Part shown: one piece after another, positions 1-40,069 of the stretch
How the letters are laid out: every line of letters begins with the position of its first letter
Numbering within the stretch: the stretch's first letter is position 1
Origin: a virus
Lineage: Duplodnaviria; Caudoviricetes
Direction: 5' to 3' (one strand)
IMG/VR virus record: IMGVR_UViG_3300042366_001770
Location: 1 to 64,000 of that record
DNA: 64,000 bases
The notes under the pieces: generated by a model
What the model saw: the letters and a program-made list of their open reading frames with translations, nothing else
Databases searched by the model: none
What the model was told of the DNA's origin: nothing
Program-made: the position numbers and the translations under genes

Positions 1-630
1 TTAGACCGTACAGAACCTATCATTTGGTGCCTCAATAATCTGTTCCAAATCTTGTTTATTTAAAGACGCTAGATTTGTAAGAACGTCTTTTAGTCTTAAA
101 TTTTCTTCTTCTAGAATTTTAATTATTTCATTGGCTTGGTCTAAAGCTTTATGCAAGTATTTATTTTTTATGATTAGTTCATCTGTTATTGACTTTTTGA
201 AATTTTGCATAGCATATCTCCTAGAAGGATTCAAGTCAACGATTGATGAATAATAATACACCTTATAGGTCTAGACTGCAAAGAAAAGACTTTAGTTCTT
301 TAAGTTGTTTATTGCTCAATACCATATAATCAGCATAGGGTTTGTGTTTCCATAAAACTTGCCAACAGTATCTTATTCTCTGCCATAATGACATCTTATT
401 CTGATAAGCAGCAAAAGTTTCATATATAGCAAAGTCAGCCATTCGTAAACTATGGTCGTATTCTATCATTAGAATTTCACTACGACAATCACAAGGAACA
501 AAAAGAGTTTTATTTTCTCTTAGATTTGTTACGTTTCCCATGTTTAAAAATTCTTTCGTAGTTTTTTGCCCAGGTTTTTTGATCAACACCTTTTGGTCTT
601 TGTTTAGACCCTTTACCATTTTGGGACATA

Positions 631-6249: not shown

Positions 6250-6270
6250 ACTGTTGTTACTTTGTAAGAA

Positions 6271-6622
6271 TGGAGGCGAGGGGAGTCGAACCCCTGTCCT
6301 ATCAATAGATCCATATACTTTCTACAAGTTTATTTCGTTTTTTATCAGACTAATCAAACTCCAACGAACAGGATTTTGTTTAGACTTTTCAACCTATTAA
6401 TCTTAGTTAAGATAAGTTGACCATCTTAACCCAGCAGGATTTTACGACAATCTTTTAGACGCTCCCTGCATCGCTTCCTAAGATTGTTACTGCTTAATTA
6501 AGCAGCAAGGGCTAACTGATGACTGCCAGTTAAAGCATTTAATCGACTTTTAAAGTGGCCGGTCGATAAACCACTACTTGCTTATATAGTTCACTAATTG
6601 TAGTCGAAACCTTTACGCCCCC
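6271..6622 (-). ncRNA. ssrA: tmRNA; predicted tag (A)GSHQLALAA
   Basis: 5' GGGGGCG pairs with 3' CGCCUCC-A giving the G3.U70 Ala identity. T-arm GGGG-UUCGACU-CCCC. pk1-like GUGG/CCAC plus UCGAC/GUCGA. Internal ORF after UAACU reads GGC AGU CAU CAG UUA GCC CUU GCU GCU UAA. Length 352 nt; CCA not encoded. Confidence 0.93.
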
Positions 6623-6849: not shown

Positions 6850-7302
6850 TCAAACTTCATTGATATCAGTTACACCTTTATCCTTTCTCTGGTATAAATA
6901 GTTAAACAACATTGCAGCCCCTTGATATGAATCTCCGACAGAACCAGCAGCATTATTACATTCCCAACATACCCATCCTCTAAATATTGTGCTATTAGGA
7001 TAGTGATCGCAAGCCCATTTAGTAGGAATTTTATTACAGGATTCACATCGTTCTGGTTTTGAGGGGGCATTTTGATGAACGATTTTTAAATCCTGGTTGT
7101 ATTTTTTGAAACATTCTTTGCATTTAGAATAAAGCTTGCCACGATCCAAAAAGAAACTTTCAACAGGCTTTTCTAGTTTACATATCCTACACACTTTAGT
7201 ATCGCCATCACAATCATCTAACCCTGTTTCTGTCAGAACTTTTAATTCTGGTTGATTTGATTCTTCTTCAGAAAGGTCTGTAAATAAGCGTAGTTGATTC
7301 AT
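6850..7302 (-). CDS. Endonuclease VII-like (His-Me finger) protein with N-terminal Zn ribbon
   Basis: CRIC..CKEC, then CESC..CDH..FRGWVCWECN. Confidence 0.7.
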   Translation of the reverse strand: MNQLRLFTDLSEEESNQPELKVLTETGLDDCDGDTKVCRICKLEKPVESFFLDRGKLYSKCKECFKKYNQDLKIVHQNAPSKPERCESCNKIPTKWACDHYPNSTIFRGWVCWECNNAAGSVGDSYQGAAMLFNYLYQRKDKGVTDINEV

Positions 7303-7309
7303 AGTGATA

Positions 7310-7368
7310 AAAGAAGCAAAGACCCCCGAAAGTGTGCATTGTTAAGAGGCATCGGGGGTTTGCTTTTT
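7310..7368. terminator. Bidirectional intrinsic terminator-like hairpin with a large loop
   Basis: AAGCAAA..CCCCCGA / TCGGGGG TTTGCTT stem with A/T tracts on both sides and a 22-nt loop. Confidence 0.6.
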
Positions 7369-7373
7369 ATTGA

Positions 7374-7604
7374 TTAACGCGAACCATTCTTACGAGAAGT
7401 AAGACCGTACCTAGTTTCACCGAATCGGCCTGTGGTGGTAACAACATTAAAACCCTCTGAGCGTAGTAGTGGCTTAATATCACTAATCGTTGCTCTGAGA
7501 TTACCAACATTAAACATAGCAAAAGCACTATCTTGGCTAAGTGTCTTGCCTCTCATTAAATAATTCATAACCCTATCCTGCTTAGTCAAAGTAGAAGTTG
7601 ACAT
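7374..7604 (-). CDS. Small winged-HTH-like DNA-binding protein
   Basis: Pattern VMNYLMRGKTLSQ..A..FNVGNLRATISDIK. Confidence 0.5.
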   Translation of the reverse strand: MSTSTLTKQDRVMNYLMRGKTLSQDSAFAMFNVGNLRATISDIKPLLRSEGFNVVTTTGRFGETRYGLTSRKNGSR

Positions 7605-11186: not shown

Positions 11187-12146
11187 TTACTCTCTTACCG
11201 ATTCCCCGTGTCCTCTAGTAATTATACCACAGAACACCTTTAAGTCAATCTGTTCGCTTAAAAGTTTTGTGGAGGAATCAGCAAAAACTACGTTTATTCC
11301 ATTAGGATGAAAAGAATAAGCTTCTCCATCATTTGTGGCGTTCATTGGTACTCCATCGTTGGGTGATGCTTTGGGAGTTTTTATACCATTGCTATTCATT
11401 GGATCAAGTTTAAACGGACCAAGATTATCTGCCCAACCAACACATTGGTTTGTTTCTACGGTAGATGCTACTTTTTGTCGATAAATTTGTGGTCGGCCTG
11501 CACACTCTACAAATAATAGCGTTTTGCTTAAACCGTCTGTAATTGCGGATATTGGGGTTGTTTTATCTTTTACTAAACAACCGTCTCCATTAACAGAATA
11601 TAAATCTGGACTAATCACATTTTTCTTAACGCCTGTTATAGTTTCATAATCAGTGCGTCCTAATTTCTCTGGAGACACAAACGCTGGTCTGATGCTATCA
11701 GTGTCCGGTGAAATTGGTACTGAAGTTATACCATCTCCTTTAGAAGATGGGCAAATAAAAATTGATAAGTTTTGTTGTGAAATGGAAAGATTAGTTCCTT
11801 CCCACCAATTAGAATCTAAAGAATAAGTCTCTACTAAATTTGCTTCTTCCATGAAAGGCATAATATTAGTGCGCCAAGAATGTTCTTTACGATAAGGATT
11901 TCCTTTTGGTGCTTGAGGAAAGAGAGTTATATTAGTTGAATCCGTTGTGTACGCTGCTGCTGGCAATGAGTTTTTTGTATCAATCATATTGTGAGTAGCA
12001 ATACCAAATTGTCTCAGATTATTAGAGCAAGAACTTCGTCGTGCTGATTCTCTAGCACTTTGAACAGCTGGTAAAAGCAGTCCGATTAGACCTCCAATGA
12101 TAGCAATAACAACTAATAACTCTACTAATGTAAAACCTTTTTTCAT
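11187..12146 (-). CDS. Prepilin-type N-terminal cleavage/methylation protein with DUF1559 domain (planctomycete-type)
   Basis: [53 protein letters not shown], and C-terminal [12 protein letters not shown] (H-X9-DG variant). Confidence 0.92.
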
Positions 12147-34413: not shown

Positions 34414-34486
34414 TGACCCCACGGGGATTCGAACCCCGATACTTGGAACGAAAATCCAAGGTCCTAAACCGTTAGACGATGGGGCC
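34414..34486 (-). tRNA. tRNA-Glu(UUC)
   Basis: GGCCCCATCGTCTAACGG..AGGAC; anticodon arm TTGGA-TTTTCGT-TCCAA; T loop TTCGAAT. Confidence 0.9.
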
Positions 34487-34526
34487 AGCCACCGTAACTC
34501 AAACGTCAGCCTCCGAAGCATAAAAG

Positions 34527-34602
34527 TAGGGCGTGTACGAGTCGAACGTACCTATGAACACCTTATAAGAGTGTCGGATGCAACCGGCTTACCTTACGCC
34601 CC
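34527..34602 (-). tRNA. tRNA-Ile(UAU) with atypical D arm
   Basis: Acceptor GGGGCGT/ACGCCCT-A; anticodon arm ACACT-CTTATAA-GGTGT; T arm GTACG-TTCGACT-CGTAC; A at position 8 and a weak D stem. Confidence 0.75.
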
Positions 34603-34653
34603 GTGTGTTCTATTCTACATTCGTTATCGGCAGTTGTCAACCCCAACCTTTAG

Positions 34654-34740
34654 CGGAATCTGAGGGATTCGAACCCCCGGAGGATTTTAACCCTCGGCGG
34701 TTTAGTAAACCGCTGCCTTAAACCACTCGGCCAAGATTCC
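34654..34740 (-). tRNA. tRNA-Ser(ACU) with long variable arm
   Basis: GGAATCT/AGATTCC with G73; anticodon arm GCGGT-TTACTAA-ACCGC; variable arm GAGGG-TTAAAA-TCCTC. Confidence 0.9.
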
Positions 34741-34743
34741 AAA

Positions 34744-34815
34744 CTGTCCGACTAGGATTCGAACCTAGAACCAAGCGGTTAACAGCCGCCTACTCTACCG
34801 TTGAGCTATCGGACA
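34744..34815 (-). tRNA. tRNA-Asn(GUU)
   Basis: TGTCCGA/TCGGACA-G; anticodon loop CTGTTAA. Confidence 0.95.
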
Positions 34816-34825
34816 TCATTTACAA

Positions 34826-34896
34826 TTCCGGGGCTAGGATTCGAACCCAGACAAAGAGAACCAAAATCTCTAGTGCTACCGTTACACTACCCCGGA
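34826..34896 (-). tRNA. tRNA-Gln(UUG)
   Basis: TCCGGGG/CCCCGGA; anticodon arm AGAGA-TTTTGGT-TCTCT. Confidence 0.92.
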
Positions 34897-34897
34897 G

Positions 34898-34969
34898 AGC
34901 CGACAGAGGGAATCGAACCCCCGACAGGTTGTTTACAAAACAACTACTCTACCACTGAGTTACGTCGGC
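34898..34969 (-). tRNA. tRNA-Thr(UGU)
   Basis: GCCGACG/TGTCGGC; anticodon arm GTTGT-TTTGTAA-ACAAC. Confidence 0.93.
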
Positions 34970-35683
34970 TTGCAAGACTCGCCATCTCTGACGAGTCAAG
35001 ATCCCTCTATCCACATGGGTAGACAGGACGCTTACATATCATACTCTCGATCCTAGGTCTTGTCCAGCCTCTACCACTTTTATAATTTCCCAAGATTCCA
35101 TATACCTAGTATTTTCATCTGGATGGCATGGTAGAAGTTGTACACACTTTCTTTTAGCATCTGTTTTAGATTCGCAATCACGCATCACAATTTGCACTGT
35201 AATATAGTGATACATTATTCATACTCCTTTTGCCATGAACGCTCAATATCTCGGCGTGTGCGAAGGCGCTTGGGTCTGTTGTCCATAACCGTATCCCGAT
35301 GCTCCTTGTGTCCCTGTCGAACCTCCCACGGCATAACTTTCTTGACCTTGATGATGTTGCGTCGTGGTCGCTGCATATCGTCGTTGTTGTGGAGCGTAAT
35401 CATGCCATTGTCCATTTTCGTGTAAGTAAAAAACCTTCTCAACATTAGGATCGTAAGCCATTAGACAGTATTGTATCGGATAGACTGGTTTTGTCAATAC
35501 TTGTTTTTGTGGCAGTTTTGGTAATTTTATATCACCTTTTTGATAATCTTTTACACCATTATAAGCAAAACCTAACAGAGCAATAATCACTCCAATCCAT
35601 TGAATCATCCGTTCGCTTCTCCTTCTGCGTGGTATCATCATACTCTATGTATCGACGTCTGTCAACACTCAACTTTAGAAAAT

Positions 35684-35765
35684 TCTAAAGTCTTTACGGC
35701 TAAGGACTTACGACGAATCCGGCCGGCCGTCTTTCTCCTAAGTCTTTATTCTTAAAGAGTTTAGG
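35684..35765. repeat. 82-bp double-dyad element, copy 3
   Basis: Boxes at 35684-35712 and 35737-35765; centre CCGGCCGGCCG. Confidence 0.9.
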
Positions 35766-35821
35766 AGCAGCTCACAAGCCTTCAAAAAATCTTCCGTAGT
35801 TTTTGCGTCATCTTTCATAAA

Positions 35822-35893
35822 TAGCCCCGGCAGGAATCGAACCTGCATCTAGAGATTAGAAGTCACTTATTCTATCCATTGAACTACGGGGCC
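35822..35893 (-). tRNA. tRNA-Arg(UCU)
   Basis: GGCCCCG/CGGGGCT-A; anticodon loop CTTCTAA; T loop TTCGATT. Confidence 0.92.
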
Positions 35894-35900
35894 GTCAATA

Positions 35901-36126
35901 CTGCAAGCCCCTACGGCGTCCCATAGAGGCTATGCAGCTTGATGGTGTTATCGTCTTACCATCCTATCATAATTATACGCTAGAGGGTCGATAACTTCAA
36001 CGGAACCACCCGTTTTATCTGGTTGGTTAGACCCTCTCTAGGTTGCACCTTGGGCACTGCAACGAGCCTCATACGCGGGTTTTACCCCGCCGCACTGTGC
36101 CTAAATGCTATTTATACTGGCACAGT
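35901..36126 (-). ncRNA. Candidate structured ncRNA (about six consecutive hairpins)
   Basis: No plausible minus-strand ORF; G.U-compatible stems on the minus strand, e.g. AGCCTCTATGG-GACG-CCGTAGGGGCT. Confidence 0.5.
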
Positions 36127-36140
36127 CCAGTTTGTCAATG

Positions 36141-37046: not shown

Positions 37047-37881
37047 GTTCTTTCCTCCAAAACGTAAACTTGTTTGCCACTAGTAACTAGCGTAGCGTAT
37101 TCGCTATTATCCCAAATAAACTCGTTGCTATCGCTTTCTCGTCGCCAGTACGGGTCACGAATAGGATTATAATACAACTTCTCAAGATTGTCAACTGGCA
37201 TTTGTCGAACAGGACGAACCTCTTCACACTTTACCCAGCCACTAACATCATGCACACCAGCCTCAAATACCTGCTTGGCCTTATTGGGGCGATTCACCAG
37301 CTTGCATCCAACCATCTCCAATTGGTATTCGGTCGGATTGTAGTAGTATACATCTACTTTTTTGCTACCTTGCATAATCTTTATCTGCCAGTGCATATAG
37401 TTTTTGCCACTAGACAGATGGAATCGAACTTCGGCGTGTAACTTATTCTGTTTCATCTTCCTCATCATCCATGCCCCCAAACATATCTTTCCAGCAGTTA
37501 CCACAAGTACCACTAATTAACAACTCACGCTCATCAGCACTAAGATAGGGCAACTTATCTTGAATATACCCTGAGCCACTAGTCCAGTCAAGAAAATCCT
37601 GTTCATTTACCCACAAAATATATTCGGCCCCACAATGAACACAAGAGGCCACCAACTGTCGATCTCTATCAGCAAAAGCAACCATAAAAGTTCTCCTGTC
37701 TGCACAATATACTTTATCGAGTCACTCTTGTCAAGACCCCTACTTCTGACTGACTATCAGCAACGGCAGCGAATCCGTAGGATTAGCAAAGACAAACAGT
37801 CGGGTTATGCCATACTCGGCCTTGCATTTAACCGTGGCTTCTTTGATATCATTCTGCCAGCGGCCCGCATCTGTTTGCTAG

Positions 37882-37954
37882 TAGGAGCGGTGGGATTCGA
37901 ACCCACACTTGAAGGATTTTAAGTCCTTTGACTCTGCCGTTGGTCTACGCTCCC
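37882..37954 (-). tRNA. tRNA-Leu(UAA) with short variable region
   Basis: GGGAGCG/CGCTCCT-A; anticodon arm AAGGA-CTTAAAA-TCCTT; T loop TTCGAAT. Confidence 0.9.
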
Positions 37955-38091: not shown

Positions 38092-39261
38092 ACATACCAC
38101 CAGTGGCACTGCTGGCAAAACTTCCAGATCAGACCGTACTTGTCGTATTTCCACACAAGATTATCACACATGCCACACGGACAAATATCACTAAGAGTTT
38201 TGAGTTCCATATTTAGTAGTCGTACAAATCCTTAGTATATTCTTTTGGTATAATAGGACACCAACCCTTGGCTCGCTCCTCATCATATGGAAGCCAGAAT
38301 GGAGCATCACAAGCGTCAACAAATCCAAAATCCACATTCTTGAATGTGTGTGGACACAGTTCTATAGGATTAGCACTGTCCTCATAAAGTGTTCGTTCCT
38401 CATACTTATAATGCCCAATACCTATACCGATATGAGGGCCAAAGTAGTAAATTTTCTCACCATTCTTGGGCGGATTCTTATGAGAATTATTCCATTCCAT
38501 TATTTTTCCCTCGTAACAATCAAGCATTGTGTACCAGTATCACCATCAGTAAACTTCACACACTCATGCGGCCCATAATACCAAGCATCATTCTTGGAGA
38601 AATTGAATACAATCTCCTCTGTCTTTAGATTGACATCATTATACCCACCCTCATAACCAAGGGTAAGAACCCGCATATCGCCCGGATAGTTCTTCAACTG
38701 CTCAATAAGTTCGTTAACGGTCATTTCTTTTTCCTTTTGATGCTTTTCAAGTATATGGGAGACTTTTGATATGGCTTAGTCACAATCTCTATTTCACGAA
38801 TATCAATCGGCCTACCGTAAAACTCTGCATCATTATAATATGATCGTGCAATCTTTTCAGTCTTACAAATCATCTCAATAGATTCATGGATGCTAGCAGC
38901 CCCATACTCACAAACGATAGCGTAGGCTTTCATTTCATAAACCCCACAGAAATAAGATTAGCCAGACAAACAGTTAGAAGTCCAACCACCAAACCCACAT
39001 TAGTATATCCCACCAAATACCCAATACAAGTAGTTGCAATAATATAACTAATAGGCACAGTATTTTGTCGGATAAACTTCATTATACCCTCATTGCTATC
39101 TTTTCGTATTCACTAATCAAGTCTGATACCGTTATACCATGCTCTTCTGCTAAAGTCAATGCCTCTTTCTTGGCAGGACTCATAATCATCATAGGATTCT
39201 TTAGAACCCTGAGAACTTTAATAATCGCTTCTTCTTTAGTCATTCTTTTTCCTTTGTATTA

Positions 39262-39680
39262 AACCCAGCGGATCATTTACGCCCCGATCCTATAACCCAT
39301 ACGATTGCCCTTGTCAGGACCGGATGGAAACCGCCCACGGAAATCCTCCCTGCAAAGTGATAGTCTGCTAGCAACAGTCACTTTGGTCTGGCTCTTGGGA
39401 GCGGTTACTGGTTGTTCGGTATCCGGCTGTTATTTCAGTGATTCTACCCGATGAAAGATAGAACGCAAGCGTAATGTTGCGGTGTTAATTCACTCTATTA
39501 CCCGATGAAGGATAATTCCGGATTGTATGGTCGTGGTGAGGACGCGATCCCCCATAGATTGGCACTACTATCCAACGTATAAGCCCGTTGGCAACCTTTC
39601 CGATGCATTGCATACGGTAGGTTTATCGTAATGGCTTATCCCAACCTAGCCCTACATTGGCCCACGAATGTTTGTGTTGT
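39262..39680 (-). ncRNA. Candidate large (~420 nt) structured ncRNA with its own promoter
   Basis: ORF-free, GC-richer stretch directly downstream of TTGACA-N17-TAGAAT (39687-39715); many stems; two hairpins share the loop UUCAUC. Confidence 0.6.
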
Positions 39681-39752
39681 GCTGTCATTCTACAAGTATT
39701 ATCGTCACTTGTCAAGAGGCTTCTATAGGAATTCTGGAAAAAATTCTGTTGA

Positions 39753-39834
39753 TGCAACCCTATATCACACAAGCACTTACGTCAACATCCTGCGGCCAGC
39801 CTCGTCGTAAGTCCTTTACGATCAAGGCTTTAGG
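39753..39834. repeat. 82-bp double-dyad element, copy 6
   Basis: Boxes at 39753-39781 and 39806-39834. Confidence 0.88.
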
Positions 39835-40069
39835 TCTACTCCAAACTCCAGCCCGCATCCTTCAAGATATGCGAAGTGTGTAAAACGGTAGTTAAACCAT
39901 CAGCATTAGTATAGTCTTTATAGCTTCGCTCATCCAAATAGATATGCTCATCTAGCACATCATTATCATTTAATTCCCATATAGCATCCATAGCAGCATA
40001 TCGTGGAGCCTTGTTGCATGAGTAGATTAGTTCCAATGTTCCACACTTGATATAGTATTTAGCCATGAT

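Follow-up and report, generated by a model that had tools for sequence, protein, structure and literature searches.

GOLLD and ROOL are large structured RNAs of which the function is unknown; they often occur in phages or prophages, close to tRNA genes. The ToxI RNA of type III toxin-antitoxin systems is composed of pseudoknotted RNA units, repeats of about 36 nt, with a constant short A-rich cut site between them, and mimics of ToxI-type arrays are carried by phages. The name GOLLD contains the term "lake-derived" (10.1101/2024.12.08.627333), and the function of RNAs C and D of phage T4 is still described as unknown (PMC9697503). The DNAVirus_X catalogue, made from IMG/VR, contains 8,495 candidate RNAs in the form of covarying intergenic motifs of 29-151 nt, some of them tRNA-like, and passages of its main text describe neither a modular array nor a 147-nt pseudoknotted RNA; fragments of the RNA family described below may be listed in the catalogue itself (PMC10690425).

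The locus described in this work lies in a 64,000-nt stretch of viral DNA (the window), the front half of a 128-kb virus record in IMG/VR (IMGVR_UViG_3300042366_001770) that has terminase, portal and tail genes. The minus strand of positions 39261-39715 is a non-coding RNA locus composed of a host-type promoter followed by three independently folding RNA modules, here named unit A, module X and unit C (Table 1). The locus is conserved, covarying and strand-specific, and belongs to uncultured lake phages. The three modules are self-closing, unit A being constant, module X optional and unit C usually the last. The original prediction for this region, made from the sequence, is partly supported as a whole: a structured RNA on the minus strand is borne out by covariation in units A and C and in module X, and the expected tRNA-rich setting is that of an early phage region. 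What had been taken for one RNA class of about 420 nt is a composite, the middle of which is exchangeable (0-215 nt among the first 20 homologues).

Table 1. Features of the RNA locus and its downstream flank in the window, in the direction of transcription
Feature	Position	Strand	Evidence or remark
Sigma-70-type promoter, TTGACA-17-TAGAAT	39687..39715	-	11/12 consensus matches
Short leader with predicted transcription start (about 7 nt past the -10 hexamer)	39676..39686	-	Inferred from promoter geometry
Unit A, 146 nt, ending ...CCACG-ACCA	39530..39675	-	Covariance model R1, 150.9 bits
Unit A P1	39666-39662/39536-39532	-	Alignment-derived
Unit A P2	39661-39658/39652-39649	-	Alignment-derived
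Unit A P3	39648-39641/39562-39555	-	Alignment-derived
Unit A pseudoknot	39639-39634/39584-39579	-	Alignment-derived
Unit A P4	39633-39628/39568-39563	-	Alignment-derived
Unit A P5	39623-39619/39597-39593	-	Alignment-derived
Unit A P6	39591-39586/39577-39572	-	Alignment-derived
Unit A P7	39551-39547/39543-39539	-	Alignment-derived
Module X, including AUACAA linker	39419..39528	-	z = -3.40; compensatory changes
Module X closing stem, AUCCGG/CCGGAU	39523-39518/39426-39421	-	Invariant among 9 distinct copies
Module X hairpin, UUAUCC-UUCAUC-GGGUAA	39516-39497	-	Compensatory changes (9 distinct copies)
Module X hairpin, CGCAA/UUGCG	39481-39464	-	Compensatory changes (9 distinct copies)
Module X hairpin, UUCUAUCU-UUCAUC-GGGUAGAA	39463-39442	-	Compensatory changes (9 distinct copies)
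Unit C	39261..39417	-	Covariance model R2, 137.6 bits
Unit C closing stem P1c, AACCAG/CUGGGU	39413-39408/39268-39263	-	CCAG/CUGG core invariant
Unit C P2c	39406-39401/39334-39329	-	2/6 pairs changed on both sides
Unit C inner hairpin, CAAAGUGA/UCACUUUG	within unit C	-	Compensatory changes read from alignments, uncounted
Unit C optional hairpin C3, CCAUCCG/CGUAUGG	39327-39321/39303-39297	-	77% paired in the column assignment, a figure limited by the alignment
Unit C hairpin C4, GGAUC-GGGGCGUAAAU-GAUCC	39290-39286/39274-39270	-	99.8% paired; 4/5 pairs changed on both sides
AAUACAA linker, leading into the next ORF's ribosome-binding site	39244..39260	-	Sequence; linker recurs in relatives
53-aa ORF (MTKEEAII...), first of five small downstream ORFs	39082..39243	-	No Pfam match

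All genes near the RNA locus are on the minus strand. The consensus-like promoter that had been called ahead of the element is confirmed, and the near relative G001 carries an identical one ahead of its array. Among the relatives a promoter of the type TTGACN-15..18-TANNNT is found at most 90 nt upstream of unit A in 34 of 85 distinct contexts, and in the remaining contexts unit A is preceded by other RNA modules or by the end of a tRNA. The locus of G001, the closest relative (L005), has an extra structured insert of about 115 nt between promoter and unit A (record positions 25083-25200) and a unit C without hairpin C3. The predicted lack of a coding sequence over about 420 nt also held. The ORFs overlapping 39262-39680 are of 33-49 aa only and unconserved, and each frame across the element has 5-8 stops. 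The longest ORF inside this interval (39485-39613, 42 aa) spans unit A into module X and is not conserved, since module X is absent from 17 of the first 20 full homologues. Within the RNA locus the G+C content is 0.46-0.49, up from 0.36-0.40 in the genes on either side, and the GC skew of the coding type is lost there.

Unit A, of which the 128-kb genome has a single copy by covariance model R1, is a four-way junction of the closing stem P1 with P2, P3 and P7. The P3 arm bears P4 to P6 and a pseudoknot formed by the junction AUAAGC with the P6 loop GCUUAU, and the compact pseudoknotted core contains many invariant unpaired bases. In the window both the minimum-energy and the centroid fold of unit A correspond to P1-P7 (z = -2.63, 1 of 200 shuffles as good). 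The 74-nt "mini-A" copies found in some arrays retain only P1, P2, a short P3 and P7, so that P4-P6 and the pseudoknot appear as an elaboration of the P3 arm. The sequence NCCA is found directly 3' of P1 in 65 of 92 distinct unit A copies. With its closing stem, three arms and 3' NCCA unit A has the traits of a tRNA-like structure, as a resemblance only, and within 39261-39675 neither ARAGORN nor the Rfam model RF00005 calls it a tRNA.

Covariation among homologues, which the original prediction had named as a check, is present. In a structure-free MAFFT alignment of 28 distinct unit A sequences 98.7% of 1260 cells are paired and both sides have changed in 8 of the 45 pairs; none of 500 shuffles reached any of these measures, and sliding the partners by 1-3 columns left 32-39% paired. 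This alignment is given beside that of 84 distinct model-aligned sequences because the latter, being fitted to the model, leans towards the structure: there 98.6% of cells are paired, 19 of 45 pairs have changed on both sides, no shuffle out of 500 was as good and the slid controls were 35-41% paired. With a mean column identity of 78% and an effective sequence number of 1.08 the sequences are close relatives of each other, and the compensatory changes thus stem from few lineages. In the pseudoknot three of six pairs have changed on both sides in the 84 sequences, by swaps from A-U to U-A in four rows, from A-U to G-C in one row, and from G-C to C-G in three rows which are diverged second copies of unit A; in the window the covarying pseudoknot pairs include 39639-39579 and 39635-39583. 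Such second copies, in tandem with the first, are found at L043:7343-7485, L063:4770-4912 and L153:7513-7657 (76-125 bits); the changes in their pseudoknot and P4 are compensated and they look like paralogues within one array.

The minus-strand stems named by the original prediction are all present. Pairing is kept via compensatory changes in CCAACG/CGUUGG (39591-39572), UUAUCC/GGGUAA (39513-39500), CGCAA/UUGCG (39481-39464), UUCUAUCU/GGGUAGAA (39463-39442) and GGAUC/GAUCC (39290-39270), and also in CAAAGUGA/UCACUUUG of unit C, where compensation was read from the alignments and not counted. G.U pairs, from which the minus strand had been argued, are frequent in unit A, in 60 of 84 rows in P4 and 63 of 84 in P7, and the fold z of unit A and module X is -2.63 and -3.40 on the minus strand versus -0.43 and -0.74 on the plus strand.

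Both hexaloops of module X are UUCAUC, as had been noticed, and they are kept in eight of nine distinct copies. One of two proposed long-range pairings, 39421-39426 with 39518-39523, is the closing stem of this module; the other, of 39298-39306 with 39521-39530, was not upheld, as 39297-39303 belongs to the local hairpin C3 and 39524-39530 is variable linker. Module X forms the spacer between units A and C in the window, L015 and L025 among the first 20 full homologues, and is optional in the array: besides the window, only 12 of 146 related loci have it. The suggestion of a protein sponge or of a multimerising RNA was drawn from these repeated loops, which at such a frequency cannot define the family.

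Unit C varies from 122 to 189 nt in length and its inner domain occurs in several types. Overall 92.7% of its cells are paired and the covariation score is 0.259 versus 0.119 (0 of 500 shuffles), and 11 of 500 shuffles equalled its number of pairs with both sides changed. One pair of P2c is U-A in 27 rows, U-G in 26, C-G in 16 and A-U in 11. Searched with model R2, a set of 46 sources gave 38 matches and a set of 100 gave 89, counts which refer to loci gathered via unit A motifs and thus in general to unit C in the company of unit A. Folded alone unit C has a z of -0.38, though the minimum-energy fold still recovers its helices, and the whole 447 nt reach a z of -1.58 only. Because of these two values thermodynamics alone is weak, and it is covariation that carries the case for a structured RNA.

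Full-length versions of the array measure 270 to 523 nt and are built from modules of 74-190 nt. The spacer between units A and C is 0 nt in nine and 61-215 nt in eleven of the first 20 full homologues; across all loci it ranges from 0 to over 380 nt and can contain a tRNA-like gene or an ORF. Loci other than those with module X can have modules Y or Z, a hairpin module, the mini-A of 74 nt or a diverged second copy of unit A in this interval. Between A and C of L152 lies a further module that contains a tRNA-like gene (Rfam tRNA, 45.8 bits; ARAGORN "tRNA-???", 8-nt anticodon loop). The tRNA-like genes L152:252-327, L021:8633-8710 and L043:6894-6968 have a canonical T-arm and irregular anticodon loops (ARAGORN "tRNA-???") and are embedded in a module closed by AUACCGG/CCGGUAU, which sits in the A-C interval or else follows unit C. 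A similar insert, suspected in L035 and L039 from a T-arm-like string, was dropped, as ARAGORN calls nothing there. Unit A precedes unit C, in the same order, and the two occur together in most loci; other orders are C'-A-C in L065 and A-C-A-C in L153, and unit A is present and unit C missing in L031, L059/L072/L094, L087, L122/L150 and L132, all with at least 500 nt of sequence further downstream.

Whatever their fold, the modules are flanked by the same linker, AAUAC(AA), often with CCA ahead. AATACAA is not enriched across the window (30 seen versus 22.5 expected; 7 of 100 shuffles reach 30); the linker is a local feature of the array. Between modules no covarying pair was seen. Two candidates were inspected by eye and rejected: a pairing of the unit C loop CGUAAA with UUACG of unit A shows no covariation and UUACG is already engaged in P4, and a pairing of the linker with unit A has no covariation support either.

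Distant-mode blastn of the 477-nt locus against 50,697 phage records gave no match. Two IMG/VR relatives, found via neighbouring proteins, carry the same region, and in the alignment with them invariant blocks alternate with hairpins differing in sequence and length. Motif scans gave 30 and then 44 IMG/VR stretches and 101 metagenome-contig stretches. R1 matches all 45 related IMG/VR stretches and the window, as well as 100 of the 100 metagenome stretches searched; it fails on L019, a chance match found by a 20-mer and the one miss among 46 sources. Many contigs are filed both in IMG/VR and among the metagenomes, so that their loci appear twice, and distinct sequences were counted instead, which are 28 for unit A in the viral set and 84 in the metagenome set. 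Motif scans of 185,579 species genomes detected no relative (the first pattern had 0 matches), and two 19-mer matches, in a Bacillus contig and a gammaproteobacterial MAG, fail R1 and are due to chance. IMG/VR labels record G000 "provirus", yet the RNA motifs are in none of these 185,579 genomes, and the RNA locus of G000 is abundant in lake viromes and metagenomes. The 1.2-kb stretch of the phage itself is represented with 0.75-0.97 of its sampled words in 13 lake-water DNA runs from 13 studies, a figure which leaves out the possible source run.

In the window unit C is followed by no T-run and continues into the ORF, and there is no terminator between unit C and the downstream small ORFs; on this account the predicted place of the element as first unit of a cassette is plausible within the window, the element itself being a composite. 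Over 77 distinct downstream contexts AATAC lies at most about 12 nt past the end of unit C, with the linker leading to a ribosome-binding site, in 27 (the window among them), a run of at least four T directly after unit C in 37, a new promoter within 80 nt in 27, and T-run and promoter together in 21. Homologues of the 53-aa ORF directly follow unit A in L031, L059 and L150, all of them without unit C. No RNA-related partner emerged from Pfam and PHROGs searches of 10 neighbouring ORFs or from a Pfam search of a further 20 early ORFs. One contig of a freshwater metatranscriptome (39412-39598) and one of a polyA RNA-seq run (39392-39542) lie on the locus, and neither library has a contig on the flanking genes in the 1.2-kb stretch examined; they are a weak hint of expression, with DNA carry-over possible. 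Parts of the stretch left uncovered in X18 and X20 prove nothing. X15 and X17 ("metagenomic RNA-Seq") were set aside as they may be DNA.

Elsewhere in the window Rfam detects a tmRNA, eight of the ten tRNAs called by ARAGORN, a Pistol ribozyme and an abiF motif. The ten tRNA genes (33798-35893 and 37881-37954, minus strand, as the array) are Lys (two), Glu, Ile-UAU, Ser-ACU, Asn, Gln, Thr, Arg-UCU and Leu-UAA. The Pistol self-cleaving ribozyme (36069-36131, minus strand) is syntenic in L044 (3945-4007), L153 (10719-10781) and L043 (3618-3680); it lies 3.3-3.5 kb past the array on the downstream side, and the tRNA cluster starts shortly after it. The tmRNA at 6268-6622 (minus strand) scores 135.4 bits, with the tag peptide GSHQLALAA according to ARAGORN. 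The abiF motif (7322-7358, minus strand; 38.3 bits versus a gathering score of 37) immediately precedes an ORF (6850-7302) that has an endonuclease VII domain, and could presumably be a phage-borne mimic of an abortive-infection RNA. The ORF at 11187-12146 (minus strand) combines DUF1559 with an N-terminal methylation (pilin-type) motif, a pairing typical of Planctomycetota, which would be a hint to the host. In the relative L030 a group I intron (7380-7564; 50.4 bits versus a gathering score of 50) is found right after a tRNA gene (7283-7355).

The reading that we prefer, at a probability of about 0.5, is that the array is an early transcript of the host polymerase which is cut at its linkers into separate stable RNAs acting in trans. 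Host RNA polymerase would transcribe the array early, and the primary transcript would be cut at the (CCA)AAUACAA linkers, as occurs in tRNA-cluster transcripts. RNase P uses an acceptor-type stack and RCCA, and the stack of P1 and P7 followed by NCCA could be a plausible substrate of this type; both linker processing and RNase P recognition are suggested by the anatomy of the array and by tRNA processing in general. The RNAs released may bind a host or phage factor through the conserved pseudoknot core of unit A. Cutting and action in trans are suggested by the modules being self-closing and inserted, lost or reordered without disturbing A or C, by the tRNA-like gene that can sit between A and C, and by the tRNA-like end of unit A. 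Units A and C are conserved together, in the same order and with a shared promoter, so that one joint RNA would fit too, in which the modules fold into a large multi-domain RNA, possibly a multimer, similar to GOLLD or ROOL, with the twin UUCAUC loops serving as repeated contact sites. We consider such a joint fold rather unlikely, as no covarying pair between modules was found and the sole inter-module pairing proposed is unsupported, the spacer reaches over 380 nt and in some loci contains an ORF or a tRNA-like gene, unit A can occur without C and module X is rare, and no Rfam match to GOLLD or ROOL exists.

A cis role is also conceivable in the window, where unit C lacks a T-run and runs into the ORF. 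The RNA would then be a riboswitch-like leader controlling the downstream small ORFs, and the window without a terminator-like site before the 53-aa ORF, the position of this ORF family directly after unit A in three loci and the stem of unit C with its T-run in 37 of 77 contexts, which resembles an expression platform, are in line with it. A riboswitch would keep a constant position before one gene family, and here the downstream contexts differ (various ORFs, a new promoter in 27 of 77, tRNA-like or other RNA modules); modules can be inserted between the would-be aptamer and its platform, and no Rfam riboswitch matches, all of which makes a leader improbable. To be ranked equally low is that unit A or C might be a new self-cleaving or processing ribozyme cutting the array at or near the linkers. 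The compact core of unit A with its invariant unpaired bases, the single linker common to all modules and the Pistol ribozyme 3.4 kb downstream in the window (3.3-3.5 kb in L044, L153 and L043) would fit, as self-cleaving ribozymes tend to cluster; no known ribozyme family in Rfam 15 matches, though, the linkers precede ordinary ORFs too, and unit A right behind the promoter would have only a short leader to remove. That the stems are a chance set, or the region an unrecognised small protein gene, is scarcely credible: the whole-region z of only -1.58 and some unit A copies free of stops over 49-50 codons in one frame are outweighed by covariation, 19 of the 45 pairs having changed on both sides and none of 500 shuffles being as good, by length-variable hairpins between conserved blocks with indels that are not multiples of three, and by the 5-8 stops in each frame of the window's element.

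Within our preferred reading of separate RNAs released at the linkers a more specific and distinctly speculative proposal, which we hold to be unlikely as it stands, is that the array is a set of shufflable RNA decoys, freed at CCA-AAUACAA linkers by tRNA-type processing, in which unit A titrates or misleads a host factor. Unit A would be a tRNA-like RNA (cloverleaf and CCA) of which the anticodon arm has turned into a pseudoknotted binding or catalytic domain, and the factor misled might be an anticodon nuclease or an RNA-guided or RNA-sensing defence. Modules X, Y and Z and the tRNA-like module could serve as additional decoys, which phages would exchange through recombination at the constant linkers. 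Should the modules prove to be decoys or ribozymes, the array would represent a new kind of counter-defence at the RNA level or of RNA processing.

Comparison with known systems places this widespread, well-supported RNA fold outside all 4227 Rfam families. Rfam 15, the models of which include GOLLD, ROOL, raiA, HEARO, RNase P, tmRNA, pRNA, riboswitches and ribozymes, gave no match at gathering score in 39100-39900; the search named by the original prediction also left the element without a match at E up to 10, the two hits listed being in 39175-39248 (E 2.2 and 4.5). The array modules of 13 related loci had no Rfam match, the tRNA-like gene of L152 apart, and no description of the array or of its conserved strings was found in the literature searched. 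Unit A is a knotted RNA of about 147 bases which matches no described RNA family in Rfam. The suggested kinship to GOLLD and ROOL found no similarity in the Rfam search; these RNAs are one fold of 500-800 nt, whereas the array in the window has three self-closing modules of 110-157 nt with exchangeable content. The layout is unusual: in the early tRNA region related phages exchange differently folded self-closing modules, all of them connected by one constant linker. With ToxI the array shares the succession of structured RNA units separated by a constant short A-rich site, and it differs from ToxI in that its modules are unlike each other, measure 74-190 nt and have no adjacent toxin gene.

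The likeness of unit A to tRNA includes the cloverleaf-type topology of closing stem and three arms, the 74-nt mini-A form, NCCA after the closing stem (65/92) and the position among tRNA genes. It differs by a P7 loop of 3 nt in place of the 7-nt T-loop, a closing stem of 5-6 bp and an "anticodon arm" replaced by a pseudoknotted domain of about 100 nt. The closest analogue is in T4, which has two adjacent structured RNAs of 119 and 139 nt inside its tRNA region, rnaD and rnaC, in tandem after tRNA-Arg; in their sizes and layout they are similar to units A and C together. Neither R1 nor blastn detected any similarity of theirs to the array in sequence or structure; R1 with filters off found nothing at rnaC/rnaD, the best score in the T4 tRNA region being 7.9 bits elsewhere in the locus. 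T4 is without exchangeable middle modules, and its RNA C ends in a canonical T-arm, which unit A does not have. The array is a second, richer and covariation-rich system for the 50-year-old puzzle of T4 RNAs C and D, in which one can test what stable non-tRNA RNAs do inside the tRNA clusters of phages.
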